Assembly: GCA_965220085.1 (NCBI GenBank)
Contig: CBDCOZ010000003.1
Location: 1,963,667-2,027,666 of the forward strand
Length of the DNA stretch: 64,000 nucleotides
Reading direction: 5' to 3'
Origin: Candidatus Oxydemutatoraceae bacterium
Lineage (GTDB): Bacteria > Pseudomonadota > Gammaproteobacteria > Poriferisulfidales > Oxydemutatoraceae
The notes under the pieces were generated by a model. The model was not told the origin of the DNA and did not search any database. It saw only the letters and a list, made by a program, of their open reading frames with translations. Position numbers and translations under genes: made by a program. Positions 3,483 to 58,468 of this stretch are shown here, piece after piece (position 1 is the first letter of the stretch; each line of letters begins with the position of its first letter).

Positions 3483-3655
3483 CTATCCGTCAATTATTGA
3501 ATGCCCGCAGGCCAATCTGCAACAAACCCGCTTCAAATTCCGCAAATCCTTCCCGAAGAGGTGACAAGCGCTCATTGAATGCATTCCTGCGTATCCTGCC
3601 TTACTCCCCTTGTGTGTCCCGTAATACTCCCCTGCTCCGCCGCCGGGTACTCGCA

Positions 3656-5356
3656 TTATCGTAGCGGGCCTTCCAGGAAAAGGCGCAGGCGCAAGCGCAG
3701 ACCCGGGTCCGCGCCTTCCACTGCTATGCCAAAGGGCAGGCTGGCCGTATCGTCGCTTTCGGTGTTGTTGTCGGCATCCGCCACTGTCCAGATATAGGTA
3801 GCGGAAGTCGCCGCCGCTCTGGGGATGCCGCTGATGGTGCGGGTGGCGGGCTCAAGGCTTAGGCCCGCCGGCAGAGCCGGGGTCAGGGCATAGGTCAGCT
3901 CACCATTGCCGCCGCTGGCCGCAGGCAGGGTCAGGTCGGTGATGGCGGCGCCGGTCACCCAGCTCTGGTCGGCGATGGCGGCATCGGCGGCAAAGGCCGG
4001 CGCCGTATCCGTACTTACCTCTATGCCGAAGGTCAGCGTATCGGTATCGTTGATCATGGTATTGCTGTCGCCATCGGAGACCCGGTAGGCATAGGTGACA
4101 CTTGTAGCGGAGGCAGGTGTGCCGCTGATAGTACGCGTGTCGGCATCAAAGGCGAGACCCGCGGGCAACGCCGGAATCAGGGCATAGGTCAGCGCGCCAT
4201 CGCCGCCGCTGGCCGCAGGCAACACCACATCGGTGATGGCGGCGCCGATGATCCAAACCTGATCATCCGCCGAGGCATCGCCAAAGGCGGGCACACTGTT
4301 CACCAGCCTGCCGACGCTGCATCGCTCCTCGGAGGCCGGAGGGGAGAACTGATCCATAAAGGAAACGCAGACGCGTATGTGCTTGCCGGTCTGGGCCGCA
4401 AGCGGTGTGAAGTCGGAGAAAGTGATGCCTGTGGCAGTGGCGCCGGGTATATCGCTGTAATCACTGGTTAAAGGGGCGCGACCTCTGTCGGGGGAAGCGC
4501 CCTGTTGCCACTTCCAGGCCAGGGTAGCGACATCGATGCCGTTGGGTTCTGTCACACCGGTTATCGATGCCGTAAGCGGCACACCTACGTAATAGGCGGT
4601 GGCGGCGCCCGTAGCAGTCGCTACCGTGGGCACACCGCTGGCGGCCGTCTGCGTGGATGCCCCTGCCAGGTTGATGGTCATCGTGGCCTCAGTAGCAACT
4701 GGCGATGTTCCAAATGTTTCGATGCTGAAGCGGAAACTGGTAGCGGTGACAGAGATGTCATCGGTTGGCGGGGTGTATCGGAGTTTGTTTTCGGAGTTGG
4801 CAGGTGAAAAATGAGGCATGTGGAATGAGCGACCCCTCTGGTTATCACGACCGAGCTGGCCGATGAAGAGATTGAAGGTGCCATCGTCCTCATAGAAAAG
4901 GGTGCCAAGATCAGGCAAACTTTCGATGTACAGGGTGCCGCCTGTGAAACCGGGGAAGTCGGCCAACCGGAAAGTATAAGTGTCCCCGCCAAGTTCGACA
5001 TCAACACTGCTGTCTTGGGCGGTTTGCGCGTTCGCCCCGGTTGCGCCCAATGCCAGGCACAGCGCGGCCGCGCCGATGCGCCGCAAAATTGCGTAACCCG
5101 CGTCTGCGTCAAGGGGCAGGCAATGTATGGCAACCGCGACGATGCGACGCGCCGCCGCCCGCGCGGGTGCGAAGAGCGCCGCAAACCATAGCGCAAGCCG
5201 AGGCGCCGCCGGAAGACGCATCCGCGTTGCGGATGGCGAGTTGCGGTGTGCGGGTGGCAGAAAGCGAGCGGCGAGGCGATATAGCCGGGAGTCCGCAATC
5301 CCCCTATTTACACAGCGCACGGGGGAGGGGGGGGGGGGGGGGGGTAGTATTAACAT
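3656..5356 (-). CDS. Secreted Ig/cadherin-like repeat protein, paralog 'A' of the 57.4–64 kb array. Ends in RLRLRLFLEGPLR. The 5' end is uncertain or degenerate.
   Basis: The C-terminal ~150 aa and the 3' flank are near-identical to 57417..58292 and 61894..62735. Domain-like TMTINL segments are present. A poly-C tract follows the candidate starts. Confidence 0.65.
   Translation of the reverse strand: MLILPPPPPPSPVRCVNRGIADSRLYRLAARFLPPAHRNSPSATRMRLPAAPRLALWFAALFAPARAAARRIVAVAIHCLPLDADAGYAILRRIGAAALCLALGATGANAQTAQDSSVDVELGGDTYTFRLADFPGFTGGTLYIESLPDLGTLFYEDDGTFNLFIGQLGRDNQRGRSFHMPHFSPANSENKLRYTPPTDDISVTATSFRFSIETFGTSPVATEATMTINLAGASTQTAASGVPTVATATGAATAYYVGVPLTASITGVTEPNGIDVATLAWKWQQGASPDRGRAPLTSDYSDIPGATATGITFSDFTPLAAQTGKHIRVCVSFMDQFSPPASEERCSVGRLVNSVPAFGDASADDQVWIIGAAITDVVLPAASGGDGALTYALIPALPAGLAFDADTRTISGTPASATSVTYAYRVSDGDSNTMINDTDTLTFGIEVSTDTAPAFAADAAIADQSWVTGAAITDLTLPAASGGNGELTYALTPALPAGLSLEPATRTISGIPRAAATSATYIWTVADADNNTESDDTASLPFGIAVEGADPGLRLRLRLFLEGPLR
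5327..5344. repeat. Homopolymeric G18 tract (C18 on the coding strand), preceded by GGGGGA
   Basis: Counted directly. It lies just 3' of two alternative ATGs (5369 and 5356) that are in different frames. Confidence 0.95.
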
Positions 5357-5599
5357 TTTGTTGCTTCATATCTATCTATACTGATGTAACATATGTCATG
5401 TTTCTGGTAAATGCGGTTGCATGTAGTATGTGCACAAACAACTCCGTTGTTTGTAGCTTTTGCATGGAGCACAAACAATTGAGTATGGTTTGCGTTCCAT
5501 CACTGTTTGCGGATTGTTTAGCGCCGTGTGCTCTGCCACAAGGCGCAAGTCATTTACAAGAGTTAAGTTGCTCATTGTTTCCCTCCTTTGGCGTACTCT

Positions 5600-5740
5600 A
5601 CCACAGAGTACGGGTCATTTGCAAGCGCCTCCTGCCCTGCTCCCCTTGTCTGCGCCCCATATGCTCCCCTGCTCCGCCGCAGGATACTCGCGCTATCGCA
5701 ACGGGCCTTCCAGAAAAAGGCGCGGGCACAGGGCGGCGGG
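5600..5740. other. Orphan degenerate copy of the family 3'-boundary element (…TACTCGCGCTATCGCAACGGGCCTTCCAGAAAAAGGCGCGG…) with no attached gene
   Basis: Aligns to the conserved 3' tail/boundary at 3579–3700 and to the 58.6, 60.4, 61.9 and 62.9 kb junctions. Confidence 0.5.
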
Positions 5741-6015
5741 AGCAGCGCATGACAGCGCCGGTTAAGCCGTTCATGCCATCGCGCGGATATTTGCGCCGCC
5801 GCGCATAGCGTGATGAGCGGCTGGGGCGGCAGGCGTCCATGCCGGCTTCTATCCCGCGTTGCTGCCGGGAGCCCGCAATGTTTGCGGCATTATCCGGGGC
5901 GGGCGGCGCAGAAACCTGCGGCAAGCAAACTTGAAAATCGGGCATGCTGATATAATAGCGCACGAACCATGCCCAAAGTATTTGTCTCCGCCGAAACGCC
6001 GACGCCGAAACACCG

Positions 6016-8316
6016 TTGAAAAAGAAAGTCATCTCCAAAGCAACCGCCAAACGGTTACAAAAACCGCAGACACGACCGCCGGGCTCCGGGTTGCTCAAAC
6101 GCCTGCGCACCGCCATCGGCGCCATGCTGGTTGTCATCATCGCTTACCTGTTATTGGTATTGCTCGGCTACCACCCCGACGACCCGTCGTGGGCAAACAA
6201 TGTTCCTGCCGACCAAACCCGCAATCCCGGCGGCGTCATCGGCGCATGGATTGCATACACCTTGTATTTTTTCCTCGGCGGCCCGGCGCTTGTTTTGTTC
6301 CCGCTCGCCATCGGCCTGAGCGCGTGGCACTACTTTAAGCAGGAAGAGAGCGCCCCGTCCTTTCTCAACGAGCACCTGATCAACTGGCTGACATTTGTGC
6401 TGACGATCATCGCGTGTTGCGGGCTGGCATCGCTGCATTTTGTCGGCCACGAACTGCCATTGACGGCGGGCGGGCGGGTCGGCGAGGTGGCGGCGCGCAA
6501 TTTTGTCAGCGTATTCGGAATGGTCGGCTCCACGGTGCTATTGACCGGCCTTGCGGTCACCGGCTTCACCCTGATGACCGGCATTTCGTGGCTCAAAGTC
6601 ATGGATGCCATCGGCGCTTCGATATTCCGCCTGCTGGATTGGGGCAAAGAGCTGCGCGAACGCCGCGCCACGCAACTCGCCGCGGAAGACCGAGAGAAGA
6701 GAATCGTGCAAAGGAAGAAAAAGTTGTCTATTGATACGCCGCCGCGGATTGAACCGCAGGTCAAATCGGTCGGGCCGAGCAAACGCCAGCGGCGCGAGCG
6801 GCAGATCGGATTGCCCCAAGTGAAATCGTCCGATGAGTTGCCGGCGCTGAGTTTGCTGGATGCCTCGGCCGAAGAAGTCGCGGCGTATTCCGAAAAAGAG
6901 CTCAACCAAATGGCGAAGCAATTGGAGATCAAGTTGCAGGACTTCGGCATTGAAGCGGAGGTCACCGAAGCGCAGCCCGGCCCGATCATCACGCGCTTTG
7001 AATTGTTGCCGGCGCCCGGCACCAAAGCGTCCTCTATCAGCAATCTGGAGAAGGACCTGGCGCGCTCCATGTCGGTTCCGAGTCTGCGCGTCGTTGAAGT
7101 GATTCCGGGCAAATCGGTGGTCGGCATAGAAATTCCGAATCAGCGACCGTCCGTTGTGCGGCTGGGAGAAATTCTCGGTTCGCAAAAATACGACGAAGCC
7201 AAATCGCCTCTGACGCTCGCGCTCGGCAAAGGCATTACCGGCGAAGCGACGATGGTGAATCTGGAAAGCCTGCCCCATCTGCTGGCGGCGGGCACGACCG
7301 GGGCCGGCAAGTCGGTGGCGGTACATGTCATGCTGCTCAGTCTCTTGTTTAAGAATCTTCCCCGACAGGTGCGCCTGATTCTGATCGACCCCAAGATGCT
7401 GGAACTCAAAACCTACGAAAACATCCCCCACTTGCTGACGCCGGTGATTACCGATATGAACGAAGCAGCCGGCGTCCTGAACTGGGCGGTGGCCGAAATG
7501 GAACGGCGTTATCAATTGATGGCAAGCGTCGGCGCGCGCAATATCGGCGGGCTGAACCAGCGCATCGCCGAAGCGCAGAACCGCGGGCAGCCGCTGCGCG
7601 ACCCGTTGCTTGAGAATAGCGACGGCGAAGAGGGGGAAGCGAATGAGGCGCCGCTGCTGGAAGCGATGCCCTATATCGTCATCGTCATAGACGAGTTTGC
7701 GGACATGATGATGGTCGCCGGCAAAAAAGTCGAGGAACTGATTATCCGCCTGGCGCAAAAAGCCCGCGCCGCCGGCCTGCACCTGATTCTTGCGACCCAA
7801 CGGCCTTCCGTCGATATCATCACCGGTCTGGTCAAAGCAAACATTCCGGCGCGGATCGCTTTTCAGGTGTCGTCCAAAGTCGATTCGCGAACCATCCTGG
7901 ACCAAAACGGCGCCGAACAACTGCTCGGCAAAGGCGACATGTTATTCCTCGCCCCCGGCGGCGGCTTGCCGGAACGCATCCACGGCGCGTTTGTCAGCGA
8001 TCGGGAAGTCGCCAAGGTGACGGATTTTCTGCGCCGGACGGGAACGCCGCAATACGAAGACCTGCTCGCTGCGCCGACAGCCGGCGCGGGCGGCGCGGGC
8101 GGCGGACAAGGCGATGACCCGCTGTTTGACGAAGCCGTCGCCATCGTCACCGCATCCAACAAGGCCTCCATATCGCATCTGCAACGCCGCCTCAAGATCG
8201 GCTATAACCGCGCCGCCAGAATGATAGAGGACATGGAAGCCGCCGGCATTGTCAGCGCGGTGCAATCCAACGGCAGCCGCGAAGTGCTGGCGCCGCGCGA
8301 AGGTCGCGAATCATGA
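6016..8316 (+). CDS. ftsK: DNA translocase FtsK
   Basis: TTG start. Has N-terminal TM helices, a Pro/Gln-rich linker, Walker A GTTGAGKS and a C-terminal gamma winged-helix ([28 protein letters not shown]). Confidence 0.95.
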
Positions 8317-9125
8317 TGCGCCGCCTCAAGATCGGCTATAACCGCGCCGCCAGAATGATAGAGGACATGGAAGCCGCCGGCATTGTCAGCGCAGCGCAAT
8401 CCAACGGCAGCCGCGAAGCGCTGGCGCCGCGCGAAGGTCGCGAATCATGATGCGCCGCCTCAAGATCGGCTATAACCGCGCCGCCAAAATGACAGAGGAC
8501 ATGGAAGCCGCCGGCATTGTCAGCGCAGCGCAATCCAACGGCAGCCGCGAAGCGCTGGCGCCGCGCGAAGGTCGCGAATCATGATGCGCCGCCTCAAGAT
8601 CGGCTATAACCGCGCCGCCAAAATGACAGAGGACATGGAAGCCGCCGGCATTGTCAGCGCAGCGCAATCCAACGGCAGCCGCGAAGCGCTGGCGCCGCGC
8701 GAAGGTCGCGAATCATGATGCGCCGCCTCAAGATCGGCTATAACCGCGCCGCCAGAATGACAGAGGACATGGAAGCCGCCGGCATTGTCAGCGCAGCGCA
8801 ATCCAACGGCAGCCGCGAAGCGCTGGCGCCGCGCGAAGGTCGCGAATCATGATGCGCCGCCTCAAGATCGGCCATAACCGCGCCGCCAGAATGACAGAGG
8901 ACATGGAAGCCGCCGGCATTGTCAGCGCAGCGCAATCCAACGGCAGCCGCGAGGCGCTGGCGCCGCGCGAAGGTCGCGAATCATGATGCGCCGCCTCAAG
9001 ATCGGCTATAACCGCGCCGCCAGAATGACAGAGGACATGGAAGCCGCCGGCATTGTCAGCGCAGCGCAATCCAACGGCAACCGCGAAGCGCTGGCGCCGC
9101 GCGAAGGTCGCGAATCATGATGCGC
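8183..9125 (+). repeat. 134-bp tandem array of 7 copies: the ftsK 3' end plus the ATGA junction, with 6 extra copies before lolA
   Basis: ATGATGCGCCGCCTC recurs at 8313, 8447, 8581, 8715, 8849, 8983 and 9117 (period 134). The copies differ by a few point substitutions. Confidence 0.95.
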
Positions 9126-9731
9126 CGCCTCGGACTTTTGCTCTTGTGGCTGCCGTGTGTCGGCTCCGCCGGCGCACTCGACGACCTCTACCACTTTTTT
9201 CAGGCGACAACATTTGAGGCAGACTTTGCGCAGAAAGTCTATGACGATGAAGATCAATTGCTGGAGACTTCCCAAGGCTTTGTGCTGTTCCGCCGCCCGG
9301 GGCAATTCCGCTGGGAATACCGCGCGCCCGAAAGTTACATCATCACGACCGACGGCATCAATCTGCTCGTCTATGACCCGGCTTTGTCTCAGGCCTATGT
9401 TCGCCCGACGATGGAAGCGCTCGGCACCGCGCCTTTGCGCCTGCTGTTAGACCGCCGCCGGGTCTTTGATGATTTTGATTTGGAACCGGTTGCGCGCGCC
9501 GACAAACTGAAGTGGGTACGCTTGACTCCGAAAGTGGACGACACCGAATTCACGCATTTTGAAGTCGGCTTTGCCGGGCACGGGATCAGCCGCATGGCGT
9601 TGTTCGATCGCTTTGATCAACGCATAGACATACGCTTTGACAATGTGAAGATCAACCCGGCGATAGCGGCAAGCCGTTTCAAACTCCGGTTGCCGCCGGA
9701 CACCGATGTCATCGGCGACTACCTGCGCTGA
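9117..9731 (+). CDS. lolA: Outer-membrane lipoprotein carrier protein LolA
   Basis: Has a signal peptide [20 protein letters not shown] and LolA-like sequence throughout. Conserved ftsK–lolA synteny. Confidence 0.9.
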
Positions 9732-10455
9732 ACCGAACCGCTATGCGGCCGGCGAGCGGAACAGCTTGGAAACGGGATTGACGTTTTTCACTTCCATCTG
9801 ATCGACGCGCTTGCCGGCTTGCGTCAGGCCGTTAAACGACGGGCACACAAACAGGTTGCCATTCGCGGCAAGCCGTTTCAAACTCCGGTTGCCGCCGGAC
9901 ACCGATGTCATCGGCGACTACCTGCGCTGAACCGAACCGCTATGCGGCCGGCGAGCGGAACAGCTTGGAAACGGGATTGACGTTTTTCACTTCCATCTGA
10001 TCGACGCGCCTGCCGGCTTGCGCCAGGCCGTTAAACGACGGGCACACAAACAGGTTGCCATTCGCGGCAAGCCGGTTCAAACTCCGGTTGCCGCCGGACA
10101 CCGATGTCATCGGCGACTACCTGCGCTGAACCGAACCGCTATGCGGCCGGCGAGCGGAACAGCTTGGAAACGGGATTGACGTTTTTCACTTCAAACTGAT
10201 CGACGCGCCTGTCGGCTTGCGTCAGGCCGTTAAACGACGGGCACACAAACAGGTTGCCATTCGCGGCAAGCCGGTTCAAACTCCGGTTGCCGCCGGACAC
10301 CGATGTCATCGGCGACTACCTGCGCTGAACCGAACCGCTATGCGGCCGGCGAGCGGAACAGCTTGGAAACGGGATTGACGTTTTTCACTTCAAACTGATC
10401 GACGCGCCTGTCGGCTTGCGTCAGGCCGTTAAACGACGGGCACACAAACAGATTG
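9671..10455. repeat. ~180-bp tandem array of about 4.3 copies spanning the convergent 3' ends of lolA (+) and the nucleotidyltransferase gene (−)
   Basis: GCAAGCCGTTTCAAACTCCGG recurs at about 9671, 9871, 10051 and 10231. Each unit carries the lolA stop and the C-terminal codons of the minus-strand gene. Confidence 0.9.
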
Positions 10456-11054
10456 CCACTCACCGCGAGGCGCCGTTGTTCGCGGATTGAAAAGGCGGCC
10501 GCTTCCAGAAATGTCGCGACATCGCGGAAAAAATAGGTGCCGGCGGAAGCGTGTTCGGAAATCACGCGCTTTTCCGCCGTCGCGGTCACACGCCCGCGCG
10601 CGTCAATCGCAAGATAGCTGTAGCAGGCATCATCGGCGCGAAACCACGGAATCAAACCCGACGAATCGGCATCCGCCAACCAGACATCGATCTGCTCCGC
10701 GTCCGCATCGTAGATGATATCGGCGAGGTCTATGCACAGCGGCTCCTCCAAGCGCGCGCTGGCCGACACGCCGGCGACGGCGGAAAGCAGCGCCCCGCGC
10801 GTCGGGCTATTCAAATATGCCTTCTGCGCGCCGACAAAACAGCGGTCAAGAAAGCGGGCGATGGCAGCCGATTCGGGCACATCGGCGCGCAATACAAAAA
10901 TCAGGTCGGCGCTCGCCACAACGCCATCGCGCCACCATGGCCGCGATGTCAAAACCCGTTCTATCAGCGGCGTTCCGTCGACTTCCGACAAAGGCTTGAC
11001 GCAACCGTTTGCGCGAACGATATCGGCGCCGGCCAGAGGAACCACGCAGATCAT
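10338..11054 (-). CDS. Sugar-phosphate nucleotidyltransferase family protein (MobA-like NTP_transferase fold)
   Basis: MICVVPLAG…KPL…GTPLIERVL. The start was chosen at the ATGA overlap with the upstream gene's stop. Confidence 0.55.
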   Translation of the reverse strand: MICVVPLAGADIVRANGCVKPLSEVDGTPLIERVLTSRPWWRDGVVASADLIFVLRADVPESAAIARFLDRCFVGAQKAYLNSPTRGALLSAVAGVSASARLEEPLCIDLADIIYDADAEQIDVWLADADSSGLIPWFRADDACYSYLAIDARGRVTATAEKRVISEHASAGTYFFRDVATFLEAAAFSIREQRRLAVSGNLFVCPSFNGLTQADRRVDQFEVKNVNPVSKLFRSPAA

Positions 11055-16182: not shown

Positions 16183-16457
16183 ACACCGTCGAAGTCATCT
16201 ACGCCCAAGCGGATGCGCAGAAAAAAGTCACCCTGCGGCTTGAAGACGGCGCCACCGCCGAGGATGCCATCAAACGCTCCGGGCTGCTGACGCTGTTTCC
16301 GCAGATAGACTTGCGCCGCAATCAAGTCGGCATTTACGGACGGCCGGTCGCGCTGAACAAAGTCGTCCGCGCCGGCGACCGGGTGGAAATTTACCGCAGT
16401 CTGCACAAATCGCCCGTCGAACAGCGCCGCGAACGGGCGCGGAGCAGCGGGGCGTAA
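16179..16457 (+). CDS. ratB: RnfH/RatB family ubiquitin-like protein
   Basis: About 92 aa with a VEVIYA…GDRVEIYR pattern. Overlaps the ratA stop. Confidence 0.7.
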   Translation: MNTVEVIYAQADAQKKVTLRLEDGATAEDAIKRSGLLTLFPQIDLRRNQVGIYGRPVALNKVVRAGDRVEIYRSLHKSPVEQRRERARSSGA

Positions 16458-16800
16458 GCGCCGGGCCGGCTCATAGCAACTCTCTGCCGGCATTCGCCAG
16501 CATCCGTCGCAACGCAATCAAAGGCAAACCGATCAAGGCGCTGGGGTCGGCGCTCTCAATGCAAGAACACAATGCGATGCCGAGACTCTCGGAACGAAAG
16601 CTGCCGGCGCACTCCCACGGCGCGTAAGCGCGGGGCCGGCTCATAGCAACTCTCTGCCGGCATTCGCCAGCATCCGGCGCAACTCGATCAAAGGCAAACC
16701 GATCAAAGCGCTGGGGTCGGCGCTCTCAATGCAAGAACACAATGCGATGCCGAGACTCTCGGAACGAAAGCTGCCGGCGCACTCCCACGGCGCGTCGCGA
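16447..16800. repeat. 177-bp direct duplication (2 copies) at the convergent ratB/maf junction
   Basis: 16447–16623 is nearly identical to 16624–16800. Each copy carries the maf C-terminal codons (…[12 protein letters not shown]). Confidence 0.9.
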
Positions 16801-24402: not shown

Positions 24403-25335
24403 ATGTCTGCCGATGCGGCCACAATACCGCAATCAACCGATAATGAGGCTGTCGCAGTCTCATCCACCTCGCTGATTGCATTGGCACACGCCGCGCGCGG
24501 GCTCTCGCTAAACCCCAAACAGATCCGCGCGCGCACCAGCGATACGATGCAATCCCGCTTCAAGGGTCGCGGCATGGAATATGACGAGTCGCGCCCTTAT
24601 CAACCGGGTGATGATGTGCGCCATCTGGATTGGCGCGTGACAGCGAGAAGCAATGCGACCTATACGAAAACATTTCAGGAAGAACGCGAACGACCGGTGT
24701 TCTTGTGGGTGGATAACCGCGGGCCGATGTTCTTTGCAACACGCGGCAAATTCAAATCGGTTGTTGCGGCGGAAATAGCGGCGCTGCTGGGTTGGAGCGC
24801 CACACACCGCGGCGATCGCGTCGGCGGCGCGGTATTTTTCGGTGAAGAACACCACGAGGTAAAGCCCATGCGCGGGCGACGCGGCATCCTGCGCTTGCTC
24901 CATTACCTGTCGCAACCGCCCCTTGACGGGATCAGTGACACAGCACTCGGCATACCGCTGAACAGAATGTCGCGCATCGCCCGCCCCGGCAGTCTGGTTA
25001 TCCTGATCAGCGACTTTCGCCAGTGCGATGAGCGGGCACAGACTAATCTGCGGCGCCTTGCGGCGCACAGCGAGTTGGTTATGCTTCAGGTGTATGACAC
25101 GCTCGAACAAGAACTGCCGCCGCCGGGGGATTATCGGGTCAGCGACGGGCGCAACGAGGTGCGGTTTGCTTCGCGCGATAGCGCCTTGCGCAAAACCTAT
25201 CGCGATGCGTTTGCGCAGCGCACGCAACTGACGATGAGTCTGGCAAAGAAACTGCGTTCTGCGTATCTTCGCTGTCGCACAAGCGATAATCCTCTGACCG
25301 TGTTGAAAGGAACGTTTGGAGCCCGCAGCCGATGA
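24403..25335 (+). CDS. DUF58 domain protein
   Basis: Partner of MoxR in Bat operons, with a VWA-like fold signature. Confidence 0.8.
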   Translation: MSADAATIPQSTDNEAVAVSSTSLIALAHAARGLSLNPKQIRARTSDTMQSRFKGRGMEYDESRPYQPGDDVRHLDWRVTARSNATYTKTFQEERERPVFLWVDNRGPMFFATRGKFKSVVAAEIAALLGWSATHRGDRVGGAVFFGEEHHEVKPMRGRRGILRLLHYLSQPPLDGISDTALGIPLNRMSRIARPGSLVILISDFRQCDERAQTNLRRLAAHSELVMLQVYDTLEQELPPPGDYRVSDGRNEVRFASRDSALRKTYRDAFAQRTQLTMSLAKKLRSAYLRCRTSDNPLTVLKGTFGARSR

Positions 25336-25791
25336 ACCCGGAAGCGATCGGCGAACTCCTTGCGCAACTGACGATGAGTCTGGCAAAGAAACTGCGTTCT
25401 GCTTATCTTCGGTGTCGCACAAGCGATAATCCTCTGACCGTGTTGAAAGGAACGTTTGGAGCCCGCAGCCGATGAACCCGGAAGCGATCGGCGAACTCCT
25501 TGCGCAACTGACGATGAGTCTGGCAAAGAAACTGCGTTCTGCTTATCTTCGGTGTCGCACAAGCGATAATCCTCTGACCGTGTTGAAAGGAACGTTTGGA
25601 GCCCGCAGCCGATGAACCCGGAAGCGATCGGCGAACTCCTTGCGCAACTGACGATGAGTCTGGCAAAGAAACTGCGTCCTGCTTATCTTCGGTGTCGCAC
25701 AAGCGATAATCCTCTGACCGTGTTGAAAGGAACGTTTGGAGCCCGCAGCCGATGAACCCGGAAGCGATTGGCGAACTCCTTGCGCAACTGC
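25221..25791 (+). repeat. 140-bp tandem array of 4 copies: the DUF58 3' end plus the DUF4381 5' end
   Basis: GCCCGCAGCCGATGAACCCG recurs at 25321, 25461, 25601 and 25741. Confidence 0.95.
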
Positions 25792-29030: not shown

Positions 29031-30694
29031 TGAGAGTTGCCCAAGCGGTCTTGATCGGCATATCGCTGCTCGCGGTCACGGCGATGGCGGCGGATGTGCG
29101 CACGGTCGTCAAACGCAACCAGATTGAGATCGGCGAATCGTTTCAGGTGGAATTCGTAAGCAACAAGAAAGACACGGGCGCGCCGGATTTTTCGCCGCTT
29201 AACAAAGACTTCCGGGTGTTGGGGAGGAATCAAAAATCCACGCAAAGCATCATCAACGGGGTCGTGAAAATAGAGAAGAAGTGGATCGTGGAGTTATCGC
29301 CCAAGCGCGCCGGGCGGCTGAAAATTCCGGCATTGAACTTTGGCAATGCGAAGAGCCGGGAAGCGTTTGTGCGGGTGAAAAAAGCAAAACCTGCGGCGCC
29401 CGGCAAGGCGGAGGACATCTTTATGGAGATGACAGCGCAACCCTTGTCGCCTTATGTGCAGGCGCAGGTTCTGGTCATTACGCGCCTGTATACGATCAAG
29501 AGCCTGCGCGGGTCGATCAGCGATATTGCGGCGGAAAGCGATGCCATCATAAAGAAGGTCGGCGATGCGAAGAACTACAGGAAGGCGCATCGCGGACGCA
29601 ACTACAACATACACGAAAACCGCTACTTCGTTTATCCGCAAAACAGCGGCGCTGTCAAGATCAAGCCGCCGCAACTGGACGCGCAGTACACCGAGCGGGG
29701 GCGGCGTTATACGGTGCGCAAATCGGCCGCGCCGGTGACCCTCAATGTGCGCCCGGCGCCCGCTTCTTTTACCGGCGTTGCGTGGCTGCCCGCCGAAAGG
29801 ATACGGCTGTCCGAAACGTGGTCGGAAGATTTGGCGTCCCTGCAGGCGGGCGCGCCGCTTGTGCGCACGATAGCCATCAAAGGGCGCGGCATTTCAAGCG
29901 CGCAGTTGCCGGAAATCAAACAGGATGAGGTCGATAATCTCCGGCTCTATCCCGAGCAGGCGACGCTCAAAGACAATACGGGGAATACGCTGGACTCGGA
30001 ACGCATCCAAAAGTTTGTGTTGATTCCGTCTCAGGCGGGGCAGTACAGGCTGCCGGAGATTCGCATCCCGTGGTGGAATACCAAAACCGATAAGACCGAA
30101 TATGCCACCTTGCCGGCGCGGACTCTGTCGGTTGAGGAAGCGGCGGCGGGGTTGATTATCACGCCCGAACCGGTTGTCGCATCGCAGCAAGCAGCGCCCG
30201 TCGGCGATAGCGACGACAGCAATCTGTGGGCGTGGGTCAGCGCTTTGATGTTGCTCGGGTGGAGCGCGACCGGCGCGCTGGTATGGAAACAGCGGGGCAT
30301 CGTCGCGGCTCATGCGGCTGCTGCGACCGATAACCGGCGCAAAGAGGAGAAGCAGGCGGCGAACTTGCGGCGCTGTCGCAGGCAGTTGGAAAAAGCATGC
30401 GCGAACGACGACCGCCTGGCAACCAGAAATACCATGTTGCGCTGGGCCAAACTGATGTGGCCCGACAGGGATACGAAGTCTCTCGGGCAGTTGGCGCTGT
30501 TGGCCGATGATGCCGCGCTGGTCGAAGAGATCAGGCGATTGGATGAGGCGCTTTATTCCGAGCACAGCGATTGGAGCGGCAAGGAGATGTGGACGGCGTT
30601 GCAAGCCTGCTCCGAAACCGCGAAGGAACGACCCGCCGGTCGGTTTGCCAGAAAAAAATCCGGCGGGCTGGCGGCGTTGCACAAACTGAAGTGA
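29024..30694 (+). CDS. batD: BatD family protein
   Basis: Signal peptide and C-terminal TM helix. Position in the operon. Confidence 0.75.
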   Translation: MVMRVAQAVLIGISLLAVTAMAADVRTVVKRNQIEIGESFQVEFVSNKKDTGAPDFSPLNKDFRVLGRNQKSTQSIINGVVKIEKKWIVELSPKRAGRLKIPALNFGNAKSREAFVRVKKAKPAAPGKAEDIFMEMTAQPLSPYVQAQVLVITRLYTIKSLRGSISDIAAESDAIIKKVGDAKNYRKAHRGRNYNIHENRYFVYPQNSGAVKIKPPQLDAQYTERGRRYTVRKSAAPVTLNVRPAPASFTGVAWLPAERIRLSETWSEDLASLQAGAPLVRTIAIKGRGISSAQLPEIKQDEVDNLRLYPEQATLKDNTGNTLDSERIQKFVLIPSQAGQYRLPEIRIPWWNTKTDKTEYATLPARTLSVEEAAAGLIITPEPVVASQQAAPVGDSDDSNLWAWVSALMLLGWSATGALVWKQRGIVAAHAAAATDNRRKEEKQAANLRRCRRQLEKACANDDRLATRNTMLRWAKLMWPDRDTKSLGQLALLADDAALVEEIRRLDEALYSEHSDWSGKEMWTALQACSETAKERPAGRFARKKSGGLAALHKLK

Positions 30695-31440
30695 ACCGCC
30701 TTATGCGAACCGCCGACCTGTTAATCCATGCGCACCGAGTCCTGCCGATTAATCCGGCAAACACGGTGTTGAATGCCCACAGCGTGGCGGTAAGCGCCGG
30801 CAGGATTGCCGCCGTGATGCCGAGCGCTGATGCGCGTCGCAACTGGCTGGCGGCGTTGCACAAACTGAAGCGAACCGCCTTATGCGAACCGCCGACCTGT
30901 TAATCCATGCGCACCGAGCCCTGCCGATCCGCCCGGCAAACACGGTGTTGAATGCCCACAGCGTAGCGGTGCGCGATGGCCGGATTGCCGCCGTGATGCC
31001 GAGCGCCGATGCGCGTCGCAACTGGCTGGCGGCGTTGCGCAAACTGAAGCGAACCGCCTTATGCGAACCGCCGACCTGTTAATCCATGCGCACCGAGTCC
31101 TGCCGATCCGCCCGGCAAACACGGTGTTGAATGCCCACAGCGTAGCGGTGCGCGATGGCCGGATTGCTGCTGTGATGCCGAGCGCTGACGCGCGCCGCAA
31201 CTGGCTGGCGGCGTTGCGCAAACTGAAGCGAACCGCCTTATGCAAACCGCCGACCTGTTAATCCATGCGCACCGAGTCCTGCCGATCCGCCCGGCAAACA
31301 CGGTGTTGAATGCCCACAGCGTAGCGGTGCGCGATGGCCGGATTGCCGCTGTGATGCCGCCCGCTGACGCGCGCCGCAACTGGCGGCGTTGCACAAACTG
31401 AAGCGAACCGCCTTATGCGAACCGCCGACCTGTTAATCCA
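30666..31440 (+). repeat. 179-bp tandem array of about 5 copies: the batD 3' end plus the first ~150 nt of mtaD
   Basis: ATGCGAACCGCCGACCTG recurs at 30703, 30882, 31061, 31240 and 31415. The last spacing is 175. Confidence 0.95.
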
Positions 31441-32730
31441 TGCGCACCGAGTCCTGCCGATTAATCCGGCAAACACGGTGTTGAATGCCCACAGCGTAGC
31501 GGTGCGCGATGGCCGGATTGCCGCCGTGATGCCGAGCGCCGACGCGCGTCGCAACTGGCGGGCGCAACAGTCTGTTGACTTGCCGAGCCATGTCCTGATG
31601 CCGGGGTTGGTAAACGCGCATACGCATACGCCGATGAGTTTGTTGCGCGGCTTCGCCGATGATATGCCGCTGATGTCGTGGTTGCGCGATTACATCTGGC
31701 CGGCGGAACGGCGCTGGGTCAGCCGCGAATTCGTGCGCGCCGGATCGCACCTCGCTTATGCCGAACTTTTGCGCGGCGGGGTGACGTGCTTTAACGATAT
31801 GTACTTCTTTCCGCAGGTCAGCGCGCAACTTGCCGACGAGACGGGCATCCGCGCCTGTATCGGCATGCTGGTGATGGATCTCGCAACCGCCTACGCCGAC
31901 AATCCGGAGCAGTATCTGGAGAAAGGGCTTGAATTGCGCGCACAATTTCATGATCACCCGACCGTGCATCCGGTGTTGGCGCCGCACGCGCCTTATACGG
32001 TGTCCGATGAATACCTGCGGCGCATCGCCGCGCTCGGCGACGAACTCGACTTGCAAATTTGCATGCACCTGCACGAGACTGCGCAAGAGATAGAAGACTC
32101 CCTCAAGCAATATGGCAGTCGTCCGTTGCGGCGGGTGGCCGCGCTCGGCTTATTGTCTTCGCGGTTGCTGGCGGTGCACGCGGCGCACTTGCAAGACGAT
32201 GAAATCCGCGCGCTGGCCGAAGCCGGTGCGGCGGTGATTCACTGCCCCGAATCCAACTTGAAACTGGCCAGCGGTTTTTGTCCGGCGCAAAAGTTAGCGG
32301 ACGCGGGGGGTGTGTCGCACTCGGCACCGACGGCGCGGCCAGCAACAATGATCTTGACATGATCGGAGAAATGCAAACCGCGAGTTTGCTGGCCAAGGGC
32401 GTCGGCAAAGATGCGACCGCGATGCCCGCGCATCGCGCATTGGAAATGGCGACACTGGCCGGCGCGCGCGCGCTCAAACTGGACGACCGTATCGGTTCGG
32501 TTGAAGTCGGCAAAAGCGCGGACTTGATAGCCATAGACCTGAGCGGGGCGGAAGCGAGACCGCTGTATGATATCGCATCGCATCTGGTCTACGCGACCGA
32601 CAGGCGGCAAGTCAGCGATGTCTGGGTGGCCGGGCGGCGGCTGTTGCAGAACCGCACATTGACGACGATTGACATCGACGCGCTCGGCCCGCGAGCGCTT
32701 GAAGGGGAGCGGAAAATCAGCGGCGGATGA
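31415..32730 (+). CDS. mtaD: 5-methylthioadenosine/S-adenosylhomocysteine deaminase (amidohydrolase), with an apparent −1/+2 frameshift at a G6 run (32305–32310)
   Basis: HxH metal motif (VNAHTHTPMSLLRG) in frame 1. …ALGTDGAASNNDLDM…SADLIAIDLS in a second frame starting at 32278. One extra G restores ADAGGCVALGTDG. Confidence 0.8.
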
Positions 32731-33292
32731 CTACGCGCAATCTTCTTCGCGGAACCATGCATTGACGACGATTGACATCGACGCGCTCGGCCCGCGAGCG
32801 CTTGAAGGGGAGCGGAAAATCAGCGGCGGATGACTATCTGCAGTCTTCGTCTTCGCGGAACCATGCATTGACGACAATTGACATCGACGCGCTCGGCCCG
32901 CGAGCGCTTGAAGGGGAGCGGAAAATCAGCGGCGGATGACTACGCGCAGTCTTCTTCGCGGAACCATGCATTGACGACGATTGACATCGACGCGCTCGGC
33001 CCGCGAGCGCGCGCTCAAACTGGATGACCGTATCGGTTCGGTTGAAGTCGGCAAAAGCGCGGACTTGATAGCCACAGACCTGAGCGGAGCGGAAGCGAGA
33101 CCGCTGTACGATATCGCATCGCATCTGGTCTACGCGACCGACAGGCGGCAAGTCAGCGATGTCTGGGTGGCCGGGCGGCGGCTGTTGCGGAACCGCACAT
33201 TGACGACGATTGACATGGACGCGCTCGGCCCGCGAGCGCTTGAAGGGGAGCGGAAAATCAGCGGCGGATGACTACCTGCAGTCTTCGTCTTC
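32437..33292. repeat. Nested duplications of the mtaD 3' end and the convergent PLD-gene 3' end (~92-bp units and a ~280-bp segment repeated)
   Basis: TTGACGACGATTGACATCGACGCGCTCGGCCCGCGAGCGCTTGAAGGGGAGCGGAAAATCAGCGGCGGATGACTAC occurs 4 times. 32440–32730 is about the same as 33010–33290. Confidence 0.85.
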
Positions 33293-37937: not shown

Positions 37938-39761
37938 TTATGTTTGAGGGACAAGACTTGCTTGCCATGCAGAAATCGCACTTGGAATATTTTGTAACCA
38001 CCCATTTGAGTCATTAGATGACCTTGATAAGTCTATGATTTCATCATATAAACGTGAAATTTCTGTATGCCGCAAGAATCTTTTCTGTGATTTCATTTGC
38101 ACTAAAACTTTCAAAATAGAAATAAATTGGTCTATTGAGAGAGGAATAATTTTTTGCGATTGCCCCTCATATTCATACCTTATTGCCATCCAAAAAGTGT
38201 TTATTGTGTCTCTATGTAACTTTGGAGCAATGAACAAGCAATAAGAAGGCTTGTCACCGTATTTTTGTTCAAAGTCACGCAAGTGGCGCATTACTGGCTG
38301 CCCTTCGTTATACCACTGAGTGCGACTACTCAACATCGTGACTTCACAAATTGCATTAAAACTCTCATAGAAACATTCTATATCTGGTGTGTTTGCTGGC
38401 GCGGTAAATGTTGGCTCATTATCATCGCCAACAGGATAATTAGGCTGAATTTTCAATGCATCGTTTAGGGCATATAATCCAAGTGCCGATAGTTTCTCAA
38501 GTAAAATTGGCCTGTCTTTAAAACTAAAAATATTACCCAAATCTTTGATATAAGATTCAATTCGCTTAACCTCCTGAGATTTCTTGTGGCTTTCTTCATC
38601 CTGCAACTCTCGGCGATATTCTCTTAACTCTGAAATATAGTTTTTTAGTTCGGCATTTTGCAGCAATTGGAAATTTTTAATCACAAGGCTTTCTTTTTGC
38701 AAAGCAGATTCATACCCCTGTATTTCCTCAATCAATTTCTCAATAATCTCGACATGTTTTTCTATTGTCTCCCAAGGTAGTTTTGGCTCCGAAATATCAG
38801 AAATATAGGCGAGGCGCTCTTCCTCAGAAGCAAAAGCTTTTGATTGTGCATTATCAAAATCAAGCAAAGAATTGATTTCAACTAATCTCCTCGGTTCTAA
38901 GTCAATGTAAAATCCGCCGCCTCGGATATAAATATATCTTGTACGACGAAAATAACGAATCACATTATCGCCATAATCTTGCAAATTCTTCAACAATTTT
39001 CTTATCTCATTTTTGTTGTCAGTCTCTAAAAACTCACCAGCGAATTGCTTTTCATGGGAATCAAAAACTACGCTTCGTTCCTGTTCTGTTTTGCCTGATA
39101 ACTCATCTCGTAGCGCAATAACCTTTTCTGCGTAAGAGTCAATATCTTGATAATGCACTAAGGTTGGCACAAAAAGAGAAAACTCTTTTTTGCTAATGCC
39201 CTTTGCACTGTTCCCGCGAGCAACTTCTTTTTGATTCACTGCGTTAATCAAATGTAATGTTCCGATAAATGGCTTTATATTGTCATCTACATCAGCTAGA
39301 TTACCTTGGTTACCCTTCCCTGGAACCTGCCATTTCAAGAAACTCCTAAAAAGGAACTCTCCAAAATCCAAGTCGCCTTTCAAAAACAGCCTGCCCCATT
39401 CTGTTATTTTCACCCTCTTATCCTCAATGGCGACCAACCCAATTTTTTTGAGAGGGTTCATTGATTGCCTTCCGCGCATCGCAGGATCCTCATAGCCTTT
39501 TATATTGAAGATTTCTTCTGCTTGTTCAAAAGAGATATCTTTTGACGAATCTTCCATCAGAGCAATCTTGTCTTCGGGAAGATCCTTATAAAATTGTCTT
39601 TGCCCGTAGCCATATGCTCGATTTTGAATCAATAAGATTTGATATCTCTTTTGGCTCTCAGAATTCCATTCGGAATCTTCTAGTTGTTTCAAAACAATCA
39701 AGAACCTTCTCAACCTCTCTGGATTTCGTAGCGTTGTTGTAATTGACCAAGGCTTTTTCAT
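37938..39761 (-). CDS. Type IIS restriction endonuclease, AlwI family (tentative family assignment)
   Basis: N-terminal WSITTTLRNPERL resembles the RE_AlwI family signature as recalled from memory. Size is ~600 aa. Flanked by two MTases. Confidence 0.55.
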   Translation of the reverse strand: MKKPWSITTTLRNPERLRRFLIVLKQLEDSEWNSESQKRYQILLIQNRAYGYGQRQFYKDLPEDKIALMEDSSKDISFEQAEEIFNIKGYEDPAMRGRQSMNPLKKIGLVAIEDKRVKITEWGRLFLKGDLDFGEFLFRSFLKWQVPGKGNQGNLADVDDNIKPFIGTLHLINAVNQKEVARGNSAKGISKKEFSLFVPTLVHYQDIDSYAEKVIALRDELSGKTEQERSVVFDSHEKQFAGEFLETDNKNEIRKLLKNLQDYGDNVIRYFRRTRYIYIRGGGFYIDLEPRRLVEINSLLDFDNAQSKAFASEEERLAYISDISEPKLPWETIEKHVEIIEKLIEEIQGYESALQKESLVIKNFQLLQNAELKNYISELREYRRELQDEESHKKSQEVKRIESYIKDLGNIFSFKDRPILLEKLSALGLYALNDALKIQPNYPVGDDNEPTFTAPANTPDIECFYESFNAICEVTMLSSRTQWYNEGQPVMRHLRDFEQKYGDKPSYCLFIAPKLHRDTINTFWMAIRYEYEGQSQKIIPLSIDQFISILKVLVQMKSQKRFLRHTEISRLYDEIIDLSRSSNDSNGWLQNIPSAISAWQASLVPQT

Positions 39762-39763
39762 AA

Positions 39764-41665
39764 TTATTTTGTTACTTCACAGTAGAAAATACGTTCCGCA
39801 TTATTCCTTCCGTTACTTTTTCCTGTTGTGAAGGCTTTGTAATCTTTTTCAAAAATTTCGACATCGCCCTTATCATTCAGGATTTGCAAAATGTCGTTAT
39901 CATGTATCCGTGCATTTGAACGTCCGTCTTTTGAATCTCCAGTGTTGTTATATGATAGTAAAATGTGTTTGCAATCGGCATCTCTTATCAAACCTGCAAG
40001 TGCACTCGTTGCGCTCTTGAGGCAATAATCGCTCTTGATGTGTGAACGAGCCATCTTTTTACTAATTCCAACAACTTGCGGCCTTTCCCATTCTGCAAGA
40101 TTTTCTAAAAGATGATATGCATCCGAGTATTGGCGCGAATTGTATGGCGGGTCAATATATAAAACATCACAGGAGATTTTTCGTATAAGTGTATTTGCAT
40201 CTTCTTTATAAATCTCATTATTTATGTTGCGTGAATAATCAATATCGGGAACAAGTAACTTTATTGGTTGGAGCATATCTAGCCTTTTACGAAAAGCGTC
40301 ATAATGCCCAACAGTATTTGCCACTTTATCAACTGCGTAAATAAGAGAACAAATCAAGAGATTTCTCTCATCTTTGCCTTCTATGCTTCTGTCAATCTCT
40401 TCTCTAATCACACCTATTTTCCTTGCATTTTCTTCTGTGAAGTATGTTCCGCCAAAGTGTTTTGAAAAATAATTTTCCTTGTCGCTTGGCAAATTGTTGA
40501 GATATTTTATTTTTTCAGAAATACTTTTTTGAGGCTCTTTGCTTACTCCCAAGAATGCTTGTAGGCAAGTATAGTTTGCAAAAAGAAAATCATTGGAAAT
40601 AATCTTTATGCTTGGGTTATTGAACCTTGCCCCGACAACACCGGTTCCCGCAAAGATATCGCAAAACGAGCCTACTAATCCGCACTTCTCGGAGATTATA
40701 TCTTCAACAAACCCGAGTAATTTATATTTATTACCTAAATAACGTCTGTTTTGAAGTTGAAAATATCCGTTTTTTGAACCCCGCGGTTGGAAATAATGCT
40801 TATAGTTTTTTTGAACACTAGCCCCATAAGCAGGCCTTTCAATTTCTAACAAATCAAAAAGTGTTCCTTGCGCTCCGTCCGCAACATAATCAAAACTTTC
40901 GTTTTGGTCTTTTAGTTTTTCGTAAAAACTAAAATCTCCTTTTGATGAAACGATAATAAAATCAATAACAGGTATTCCCATTATATTTCCCGCTTGCACG
41001 ATTTTCTCTACAACCTCAATATCCTTTTTACTGGGCAACGAATCGCCAGATGGATGATTGTGTACCAAAATTACACTCGCGGCATTGAGTTCTATCGCAG
41101 AATAAAAAATTTCTCTTGGATGAAGTAATGTCTTGTCAGCAAGTCCAATACTTACAACTTCTTTTCTCAACAAGACATTTCGTGCATTTAGATACAAACA
41201 AACAAGATATTCCTTTTTCTTACTTCGCAAATCATAGGTTAGTGAAGCAATATCTTGAGAGTTTTTTATCACAACCTCGTTTGTTTGATTGTCTGCATAA
41301 AACCTTTTAACGAGAGAAATTGCTGACGCAATTTGTAAGGCTTTGGCTTCGCCAATTCCTGCAACGCTTTTCAAGTCATCTACTGTAATATTCAAAAAGT
41401 TTTTACTAAATCTCTTGATAATTTGTCGTGAGAGCTGCTGAACATTTTTCCCTTTGATTCCACTTCCAAGCAGGATTGACAAAAGATCGCTTTTTGAAAG
41501 TGCCTCTGGACCTTTCTTGAGAAATTTTTCCCTTGGTCTATCAACTTTTGGAATATCTTTAATCTTTGCCATGTTTATTTCACTAATGCACTCAAGGGAT
41601 TTTTTCATTTTGCTTGCACGACTGAGAGAACACACCCAAAGCGTAATGGAGTTGTTGTCGTTCAC
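39764..41665 (-). CDS. Fusion protein: N-terminal RadC-like (HhH + JAB/MPN HNHPSGD) domain and C-terminal Dam-like (D12 class) N6-adenine DNA methyltransferase
   Basis: DRPREKFL…LSILLGSG…VAGIGEAKA…VILVHNHPSGDSLPSKKDIEVV is RadC. NRRYLGNKYKLL…FCDIFAGTGVVG…LYIDPPYN is Dam-like. The start is probably at MAKIKD (~41569). Confidence 0.8.
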   Translation of the reverse strand: MNDNNSITLWVCSLSRASKMKKSLECISEINMAKIKDIPKVDRPREKFLKKGPEALSKSDLLSILLGSGIKGKNVQQLSRQIIKRFSKNFLNITVDDLKSVAGIGEAKALQIASAISLVKRFYADNQTNEVVIKNSQDIASLTYDLRSKKKEYLVCLYLNARNVLLRKEVVSIGLADKTLLHPREIFYSAIELNAASVILVHNHPSGDSLPSKKDIEVVEKIVQAGNIMGIPVIDFIIVSSKGDFSFYEKLKDQNESFDYVADGAQGTLFDLLEIERPAYGASVQKNYKHYFQPRGSKNGYFQLQNRRYLGNKYKLLGFVEDIISEKCGLVGSFCDIFAGTGVVGARFNNPSIKIISNDFLFANYTCLQAFLGVSKEPQKSISEKIKYLNNLPSDKENYFSKHFGGTYFTEENARKIGVIREEIDRSIEGKDERNLLICSLIYAVDKVANTVGHYDAFRKRLDMLQPIKLLVPDIDYSRNINNEIYKEDANTLIRKISCDVLYIDPPYNSRQYSDAYHLLENLAEWERPQVVGISKKMARSHIKSDYCLKSATSALAGLIRDADCKHILLSYNNTGDSKDGRSNARIHDNDILQILNDKGDVEIFEKDYKAFTTGKSNGRNNAERIFYCEVTK

Positions 41666-54646: not shown

Positions 54647-55675
54647 TCAAAGTGCAACTATCAAAGCCGCTAATGCAAGTACGGCTGCTACAAGCCACTT
54701 TACCATGTCTGCGCGATGTTCAGCCAACTCAGCTCTCAACTCTTCTTTGGTCACCAGATTGTCTAAGTCTTCTTTGGTCGCCATATTGGCCAACTCAGCT
54801 CTCAACTCTTCTTTGGTCACCAGATTGTTTAAGTCTTCTTTGGTTGCCAGATTGTTTAAGTCTTCTTTGGTTGCCAGATTGTTTAAGTCTTCTTTGGTCG
54901 CTGAATTAGCCACCTTTTCTTCCAACCGCTTTAAGTCTTCTTTGGTCGCTGAATTGGTTACCGCTTCTCTCAACTGATCCAATGCTTCTTTCACCGCTGA
55001 CTCAGACTTGTTAAACTCCGCTTTCAACTTGGCCAATGCTTCTTTCGTCGCTGACTCAAACTTGTGAAACTCTTCTTTGGTCACTGTATTGGCTAACCCG
55101 GCTCTCAACTGATTCAATGCTTCTTTCGTCGCTGACTCAGACTTGTCAAACTCTTTTTGGGTCACCGAATTGGCTGCCGCTTCTCTCAACTGATTCAATG
55201 CTTCTTTCATCGCTGACTCAGACTTGTCAAACTCTTTTTGGGTCACCGAATTGGCTGCCGCTTCTCTCAACTGATTCAATGCCTCTTCGATCGCCGACTT
55301 GAACTCGGCAAACTCCGCTCTCAACTGATTCAATGCTCCTTCAATCGCTGACTTGAATTCGGCAAACTCTTCTTTCGTCACGGAATTGGCAAACTCTTCT
55401 TTCAACTTGGCCAATGCCTCTTTCATCGCTAACTCAAACTGGGTTAACTCTTCTTGGGTCGCTAACTTGGCCAATGCTTTTTTCATCGCTAACTCAAACT
55501 CGGCAAATTCGCCTTTCGTCATCAAAGCGCTCAAGTGTTTGCGCAACACTGCCAATTGCTCGTTGGCAATCGCGTGTGCTTTTTGTTCGTCAAAGCCTGC
55601 GCCAGTCAAGTTATCGACGGGCTCATAAGCAACCCCCGCCGTATCTTTTACTTTTAAGTTTTTAGGTTTTTTCAT
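54647..55675 (-). CDS. Coiled-coil, C-terminally TM-anchored protein (DUF1640-like, tentative), paralog 2
   Basis: GGGAGG RBS, start MKKPKNLKV. EF(A/K)EFKSA(I/L)EEAL and ATKEDLNNL repeats. C-terminal MVKWLVAAVLALAALIVAL. Confidence 0.7.
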   Translation of the reverse strand: MKKPKNLKVKDTAGVAYEPVDNLTGAGFDEQKAHAIANEQLAVLRKHLSALMTKGEFAEFELAMKKALAKLATQEELTQFELAMKEALAKLKEEFANSVTKEEFAEFKSAIEGALNQLRAEFAEFKSAIEEALNQLREAAANSVTQKEFDKSESAMKEALNQLREAAANSVTQKEFDKSESATKEALNQLRAGLANTVTKEEFHKFESATKEALAKLKAEFNKSESAVKEALDQLREAVTNSATKEDLKRLEEKVANSATKEDLNNLATKEDLNNLATKEDLNNLVTKEELRAELANMATKEDLDNLVTKEELRAELAEHRADMVKWLVAAVLALAALIVAL

Positions 55676-56000
55676 AATTATTGCGCCTCCCGGTCGCATC
55701 ATAACACTAATTAAAATCTATGATCAATAGCCTCGTGCCGGATAGTAACACTACTTTAGGAGCTGCAGTCAAGCGAATAGGACAGGCGGTTATAGATCAT
55801 CAGACGAACGGTCTAAAAGAAGCATTTGCGCGAGCGCCGTCATGACGCTTCCCTCGCCGAGAGAGTCGCAGAGTCCGCTATGACTCCCAACTTTTTTTGA
55901 AAGTCGCAGAGTCCGAACCACAAGCGCCGGACGATGCAGCGAGGGAGTGTTGTCGGTGAAGCACACTCCCCTGCCGGCGCGAACAAGATACGGCGCAGTC

Positions 56001-58292: not shown

Positions 58293-58382
58293 AGTATTTC
58301 TCCTAATGGTTTGTATTTCGTAAATGCGGTTGCGCAATGAGCGCTTCCGCCCCAAAGACATCCGCAAGCAATTCAAGAAGCC

Positions 58383-58461: not shown

Positions 58462-58468
58462 TTGTTTG

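Follow-up and report, generated by a model that had tools for sequence, protein, structure and literature searches.

Gene A, on the minus strand of a 64,000-nucleotide stretch of DNA from a Candidatus Oxydemutatoraceae bacterium (contig CBDCOZ010000003.1, positions 1,963,667 to 2,027,666; the whole stretch is called here the window), carries an uninterrupted run of 18 cytosines (C18) shortly after its candidate start codons. Analysis of the sequence indicates that this run is probably a real, locus-specific and hypermutable homopolymer that would act as a slipped-strand contingency tract in the coding region preceding the signal peptide; it is most likely a mutational on/off switch of a known kind, located in an uncharacterised gene family. 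Phase variation is well supported at the level of the family, while for gene A it is plausible but unproven.

In the proposed mechanism, slipped-strand mispairing during replication would add or remove C residues. Since the tract is downstream of the start codon(s) and upstream of the signal peptide, gain or loss of a single base would shift the body of the protein into or out of frame, the outcome being a heritable and reversible on/off (phase) variation. Tract length at gene A would accordingly vary within populations, and either ATG could be used; three states are predicted, in which the body is read from the family ATG (C17/C20), from a secondary ATG (C18, the state in the assembly) or from neither (C16/C19).

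The poly-C tract and its reading frames

The elements of gene A on which the argument depends are the following.

5327..5344, minus strand: C18 homopolymer (G18 on the plus strand), encoding a proline run; the proposed slipped-strand switch
5367..5369, minus strand: family-conserved start codon (MKQQNVNTT...), placed by alignment with paralogs B-E and by the frame script
5354..5356, minus strand: second ATG (MLIL...), offset by +1 from the frame of the family ATG and in frame with the body at C18
5304..5369, minus strand: dead-end frame of 21 codons read from the family ATG at C18, closed by the stop TAG at 5306-5304
5087..5326, minus strand: pre-signal-peptide extension module (SPVRCVNRGIADSRLYRLAARFLPPAH...), homologous to N-terminal extensions of paralogs and of autotransporter relatives, and unique in the window
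5027..5086, minus strand: signal-peptide-like segment (L/M)RRIGAAALCLALGATGANA, then Q; cleavage site placed by eye
3656..5356, minus strand: gene A, an open reading frame (ORF) of 566 codons with two He_PIG (putative immunoglobulin) domains and the C-terminus RLRLRLFLEGPLR
5408..5420, plus strand: family leader motif TAAATGCGGTTGC, upstream of the start on the coding strand

The run at 5327-5344 is exactly 18 bases long and is the sole homopolymer of at least 8 bases in the window, where the next-longest G/C run has 7; the instability threshold used for G/C runs was roughly 8 or more, and by simple arithmetic the expectation for an 18-mer arising by chance in 64 kb at 55% guanine-plus-cytosine (GC) content is about 1e-5. 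On the minus strand the order is ...TATAGATAGAT ATG AAG CAA CAA A ATG TTA ATA CTA C18 TCCCCCGTGCGC..., with the tract beginning 8 codons downstream of the family ATG. The two ATGs, at 5369 and 5356, are 13 nucleotides (nt) apart and therefore lie in different frames, as the preliminary description of this DNA had stated. The description also held correctly that the ATG at 5369 is the family-homologous start, since MKQQNVNTT aligns with the MKRQIFDTT of the window paralogs, and that it is positioned after a leader motif: the copy of this motif at 5408-5420 recurs exactly at 58321 and 61778.

The reading frames were followed with a script that rebuilt gene A with the tract set to 12-24 C. With C14, C17, C20 and C23 the ATG at 5369 is in frame with the body (570 amino acids (aa) at C17), with C12, C15, C18, C21 and C24 only the ATG at 5356 is in frame (566 aa), and with C13, C16, C19 and C22 neither is. 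These results agree with the earlier statements that at 18 C the body is in frame with 5356 only and that the loss of one C or the gain of two would bring 5369 into frame. At C18 the product of the family ATG is a 21-aa peptide, MKQQNVNTTPPPPPLPRALCK; the 5' frame (that of 5369) and the 3' frame (that of 5356) are each fixed by homology, so that at this length there is a one-base mismatch between them. Two characters of contingency loci are thus found in gene A, namely an unstable tract (C18, with C12-C23 in relatives) and a placement by which length changes would alter expression, the three length classes having different in-frame starts in gene A and likewise in its relatives.

Homologous tracts in the family

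The DNA of the relatives was drawn from one assembly (ERZ25072196), in contigs of 2-8x coverage, and its GC content of 62-66%, against 55% in the window, indicates that these relatives belong to a different organism. A poly-C tract was present at the homologous site in all relatives with an apparently truncated N-terminus as called:

Tracts in frame with the primary ATG: C16 in gene 1 of L002 (P0121, a 1022-aa autotransporter) and C12 in L006
Tracts out of frame with the primary ATG: C15 in gene 1 of L001, C12 in L004, C20 in gene 1 of L005, C19 in gene 2 of L005 (where a second ATG is in frame), C23 in L007 and C20 in L008

In a survey of about 120 kb, comprising the window and loci L001, L002 and L004-L008, all nine homopolymers of at least 8 bases are poly-C on the coding strand of family genes, and all nine lie between a start codon and the signal peptide, 7-21 codons past a start. 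Two of them (L002, L006) are in frame with a primary ATG that bears a Shine-Dalgarno sequence and seven are out of frame, a proportion close to the one-third expected of random phase, as where most members are off. L002, L004 and L008, with C16, C12 and C20, have one start module, MNIKALFTKPNIFGTP(A/V)SAMYA; in L002 and L004 the 64 nt preceding the tract are 100% identical and the identity beyond it is about 97%, and from these nearly identical flanks it follows that the tract changes faster than the sequence around it. Dual start codons in different frames 5' of the tract occur both in gene A and in the second gene of L005. The earlier proposal of a phase-variation candidate is strengthened by these C12-C23 runs at the same site, some of which have an in-frame length and others not. 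That the tracts exist, and where they lie, is reliable, while their lengths in contigs of 2-8x coverage are not. Scans of metagenome contigs for orthologous loci gave only L003, which was rejected as a chance 22-mer match in an unrelated high-GC contig. In L001, at 5938-8459, the P0019 autotransporter gene shows several frameshifts in its 3' half and a duplicated GPRDLPEAQVAHA segment at 5x coverage, and is either an assembly error or a pseudogene.

The genome of the window itself holds comparable proline runs in P0095, P0002 and P0043, which were read as protein sequences. In particular, P0095 starts with MLILPPPPPPPHRR..., that is, with the second-ATG start of gene A (MLILPPPPPPP), and after seven proline codons passes directly into the signal peptide; P0002 carries NTMPPSPPPPPPRY and P0043, on a different contig, carries NTPPPPPAQW. 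Scans of genome contigs for the source genome or for orthologous loci found no relatives.

The minus strand of the window carries five further family genes between 57.4 and 64 kb, which have in common the RLRLRLFLEGPLR C-terminus, a conserved 3' element and a conserved leader of the form ...GCGCAACCGCATTTAC...AGGAGAAATACT ATG AAA CGA CAA ATT TTT GAT AC.... The C18 of gene A stands where these paralogs have ACC CCT CGC or GCC CCC CGC, with four to six C. As tract-less paralogs have only C4-C6 at the site (C5 in the comparative set), the tract is best regarded as the expansion of a short ancestral run.

The family genes show an arrangement that looks like a series of cassettes. Each of them ends in the same stretch of about 45 nt encoding (L)RLRLRLFLEGPLR*, followed by a conserved stretch of about 60-100 nt. 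Within this stretch lie a strong Shine-Dalgarno sequence and an upstream ORF of 33 codons; the stop of this ORF overlaps the Shine-Dalgarno sequence belonging to the following family gene. The RLRLRLFLEGPLR motif had no match among the models of Pfam and NCBIfam. The 3' elements are all on the minus strand:

3594-3693, minus strand: 3' element at the end of gene A, placed by alignment
5630-5730, minus strand: orphan copy (the end of '...FLEGPLR*' and the sequence downstream), with 82% BLAST identity over 101 nt to 3594-3693
~57300-57460, 58540-58695, 60330-60495, 61770-61935 and 62750-62915, minus strand: further 3' elements

Two other observations concern these paralogs. Gene E (61894-62800, minus strand) is frameshifted in its signal peptide by one G fewer in a GGG run than in gene B, its family start (MKRQIFDTAPRNRR...) and its body lying in different frames with no long tract involved; it is either a pseudogene or a base-calling error, and decay or sequencing error thus occurs in the family. 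The leader upstream of gene B contains perfect tandem arrays at 58382-58460 (22 nt x3.6) and 58467-58534 (14 nt x4.9), which are further candidate variable repeats beside a family gene.

State of gene A and competing explanations

Past the tract, gene A continues with SPVRCVNRGIADSRLYRLAARFLPPAHRNSP...LALWFAALFAPARAAA..., in the extension module. This module matches the N-termini of P0002 (...PPSPPPPPPRYINKGIAVAWLYRLAARFL...), P0007 (MKKEIYNTTPPHVNRNRGIAGTWLYGLVALFLPPSH...), P0099 and P0106, in which it is in one frame with the family start, and it also precedes the signal peptide in intact autotransporters (about 1006 aa) of a metagenome assembly from ENA, such as those encoded by gene 2 of L001 and by gene 2 of L002 (...AQTPACHVARGIAAAWLHRLAALFLPPS...). 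The rest of the 5' region of gene A had been described as degenerate; this does not stand, the module being kept both in paralogs and in intact autotransporters. The insertion of a mobile element over the 230 nt past the tract was likewise rejected, as the segment is unique in the window and homologous to the pre-sequences of paralogs. Searched as a profile against a large protein database, the N-terminal extension gave no match at E <= 0.01. Wherever the module occurs, a conserved GGGGG (in AGGGGGATTGCGG) lies about 25 nt 3' of the tract, at 5280-5330 of the window as well as in the family loci. Pairing of this GGGGG with the C run in mRNA is conceivable, and the predicted fold of leader and tract is no better than shuffled sequence (z-score 0.58).

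The preliminary description had also suggested that gene A may be off or decaying, and the suspicion of decay keeps its force on grounds other than a degenerate 5' region. The Shine-Dalgarno sequence of the family start is changed from AGGAG to AGTAT, with a duplex energy of +0.4 against -7.3 kcal/mol in paralog B; the ATG with which the signal peptide of relatives begins (MHCLL...) is ATA in gene A, and a 48-nt insertion after this ATA breaks the signal-peptide region.

Several points weigh against a functioning switch at this gene. Because the Shine-Dalgarno sequence and the signal-peptide-proximal ATG are lost, the copy may be decaying. No recognisable Shine-Dalgarno sequence precedes either ATG (5369, 5356), and a sigma-70 promoter scan around gene A gave no sites. 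Expression might bypass the tract from in-frame candidate starts placed after it, namely ATG 5221 and TTG 5086, the latter a possible internal start with a weak Shine-Dalgarno sequence (-3.8 kcal/mol). The ratio of non-synonymous to synonymous substitution (dN/dS) in the extension module is 0.5-1.6 over 28 codons only, so that coding constraint is weak or unclear. The window family is without a beta-barrel, so the surface display of the gene A product is only putative. Finally, there may be errors of one base or more in the tract lengths, and hence in the on/off assignments.

This last point leads to the explanation that the tract is real but its length mis-called, so that with a true C17 gene A would be intact from the family start and the frameshift artefactual, which is a definite if lesser possibility. 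Long homopolymers are error-prone on all platforms; the comparator contigs have low coverage (2-8x) and contain frameshifts away from the tract in the start module of L005, the 3' region of L001 and the body of L008, and seven of nine tracts are out of frame. An error of this kind, however, would alter only the inferred state, a C17 run being equally unstable; moreover, L002 and L006 are in frame despite low coverage, and two genes of the source genome have the MLIL alternative-frame start in frame. It is somewhat unlikely that the tract is a functionless leftover, in a family that uses poly-C switches, of a displaced gene A that can no longer be translated. The lost Shine-Dalgarno sequence, the ATA codon, the 48-nt insertion and the lack of a promoter-like site around the gene would all fit such a relic, as would the isolated position between trxB and ftsK with copies of the 3' element on either side, and the signal-peptide frameshift of member E that involves no long tract. 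The frame of 566 codons is nonetheless open throughout, the match to the He_PIG domains is good (4e-16), the family motif at the C-terminus is preserved, and the AT-rich, unstructured stretch that precedes the ATGs could permit initiation without a Shine-Dalgarno sequence.

An action of the tract without any change in DNA, through slippage of RNA polymerase on C18 or through stalling or shifting of the ribosome on polyproline (with dependence on elongation factor P), is improbable. Most tracts are one base from an in-frame length, the tract encodes 5-7 consecutive prolines, and for A/T runs the slippage of transcription at long homopolymers is an established phenomenon; the offsets, however, are not uniform, since +1, -1 and in-frame lengths are all seen, no stimulatory RNA structure is predicted (z-score 0.58), and such effects would be compatible with heritable length change. 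Very remote is a technical artefact, either poly-G of two-colour chemistry or a chimeric assembly join: homology to paralogs B-E does stop exactly at the tract, but family sequence is found on both flanks, with the start module 5' and the extension module, known from other paralogs and from loci of the other organism, 3', and tracts occur at the same gene position in eight independent loci. The two-colour poly-G artefact was in fact rejected on the grounds of these flanks and of the recurrence at the same site. It is unlikely that the poly-C tract, beyond being an on/off switch, is the joint of a modular variation system, in which slippage together with recombination at the tract or near it would give combinatorial phase and antigenic variation over more than 25 paralogs. 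On this reading, interchangeable start modules (MKQQIF..., MNIKALF..., MDIKAF..., MHYSAIS..., MNPQIY...) and equally interchangeable bodies meet exactly at the tract, and each family gene is flanked by a conserved leader and a conserved 3' element.

Product, setting and comparable systems

The host family is a large paralogous set of secreted adhesin-like proteins with He_PIG/cadherin-like domains, whose relatives from the other organism are classical autotransporters. Gene A is identical to the database protein P0001, on whose contig (2,046,636 bp) there are more than 25 paralogs. Its He_PIG match (4e-16) was the only Pfam family found, the ESPR model being among those that did not match, and its hydrophobic segment contains an A-N-A motif. 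The PF03797 beta-barrel is absent from gene A and from the window members B, C and D in Pfam searches and present in the relatives P0121 and the second gene of L001; owing to this absence gene A is not an autotransporter as judged from its domains, while it resembles autotransporter passengers and has the same leader architecture. The signal-peptide-like segment, the He_PIG domains and the PF03797-bearing relatives together make the product a candidate surface protein. Against the ZirU family NF040485 gene A gave no match, and only the paralog P0095 matched, with 42 bits against a cut-off of 100. The core module of gene A is a repeat in giant adhesin-like proteins, with 395 matches at E <= 0.001 among 1.84 billion representative proteins, one of them of 5517 aa with 30 matched stretches; the RLRLRLFLEGPLR terminus is common to about 15 clusters.

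Gene A stands alone between a thioredoxin-reductase-like gene (trxB) and ftsK-lolA, flanked on both sides by copies of the 3' element (3594..3693 and 5630..5730). The remaining feature of its 5' side is an upstream ORF:

5396..5575, minus strand: upstream ORF of 59 codons that has a strong Shine-Dalgarno sequence; its end, MQPHLPET*, is homologous to the upstream ORF of 33 codons in front of the other family genes

No Pfam family matched this ORF. The antisense ORFs over the tract (5041-5808 and 5127-5384, plus strand) were rejected as genes, being without family matches.

Other features of the window are recorded here in their own right. Near-perfect tandem repeats, with units of 61-199 nt in 2-8 copies at 93-99% identity, are found at 894-1407, 8185-9131, 9666-10458, 16448-16795, 25223-25790, 30666-31564 and 32657-33010; at least two start within the 3' end of an ordinary gene and reiterate its final codons together with the stop, one unit being the end of the ftsK gamma domain (x7) and another the end of lolA (x4), an unusual pattern. 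Three paralogous coiled-coil proteins with ATKE(D/E)L-type repeats and a C-terminal membrane anchor are encoded at 34-804, 54647-55702 and 56001-57101, and their internal tandem repeats suggest variable length. At 37938-41665 (minus strand) an AlwI-family restriction endonuclease adjoins a fusion of RadC/JAB with a D12-class adenine methyltransferase, probably a restriction-modification module. The Rfam scan of the window found tRNAs only.

Homopolymer contingency loci are textbook systems in a few host-adapted pathogens, such as Neisseria, Haemophilus, Campylobacter, Helicobacter and Chlamydia. Phase variation of pilC in Neisseria is due to a poly-G run in the region encoding the signal peptide. 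As in pilC, the G/C homopolymer of gene A stands in the 5' part of the coding sequence, ahead of or inside the segment for the signal peptide of a putative surface protein, where one-base frameshifts would switch the gene; gene A differs in the greater length of the tract (18, and 12-23 in relatives), in belonging to a large uncharacterised paralogous family, in the two start codons in different frames that would give three states, and in coming from an organism that is probably uncultured. The tpr genes of Treponema pallidum also carry poly-G tracts, and resemble the present case as paralogous surface-protein candidates with variable G runs near the 5' ends of a subset; the tpr tracts, however, lie upstream of the start and act on transcription, whereas that of gene A is inside the reading frame.

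Among autotransporters, Campylobacter capC/capD carry homopolymeric tracts, which in capD are in the coding region (PMC7168839), while in Chlamydia abortus autotransporters and polymorphic membrane proteins have tracts of up to 16 nt and in C. pecorum the PLD genes have tracts of 5-19 nt, for which reads revealed intact variants (PMC3932018). These are paralogous families of type V passengers in which, as in the family of gene A, only some members have a poly-G/C tract in the coding sequence, and intact copies coexist with inactive ones. Unlike these autotransporters, gene A and the window family are without PF03797 and end in RLRLRLFLEGPLR, true autotransporters occurring only among the relatives from the other organism, and the spot of the tract, right after the start module, is conserved across otherwise different modules. 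For lic2A and lic1A of H. influenzae, several initiation codons in different frames upstream of the repeat tract are reported (Dixon et al. 2007, cited in PMC6479036). Gene A similarly has two ATGs in different frames 5' of the repeat, so that two of three length classes would be full-length, possibly at differing levels; the repeats of H. influenzae are tetranucleotides, in genes for cytoplasmic lipooligosaccharide glycosyltransferases rather than secreted proteins, and the ATGs of gene A are candidate starts, both without a Shine-Dalgarno sequence.

The mechanism is known, while the family and the organism are new. The family is known only from metagenome-derived genomes and combines dozens of paralogs with unusually long tracts of 12-23 bases. 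An apparent frameshift at a tract site of a long-read assembly cannot be accepted as it stands and, if the proposed switch is true, annotators would have a reason not to call such genes pseudogenes. It would also mark the family as a surface-variation system and would suggest strong fluctuating selection, by host, phage or grazers, on an unstudied organism; if the tract is moreover a modular joint, such a system would act in an uncultured and apparently non-pathogenic bacterium.

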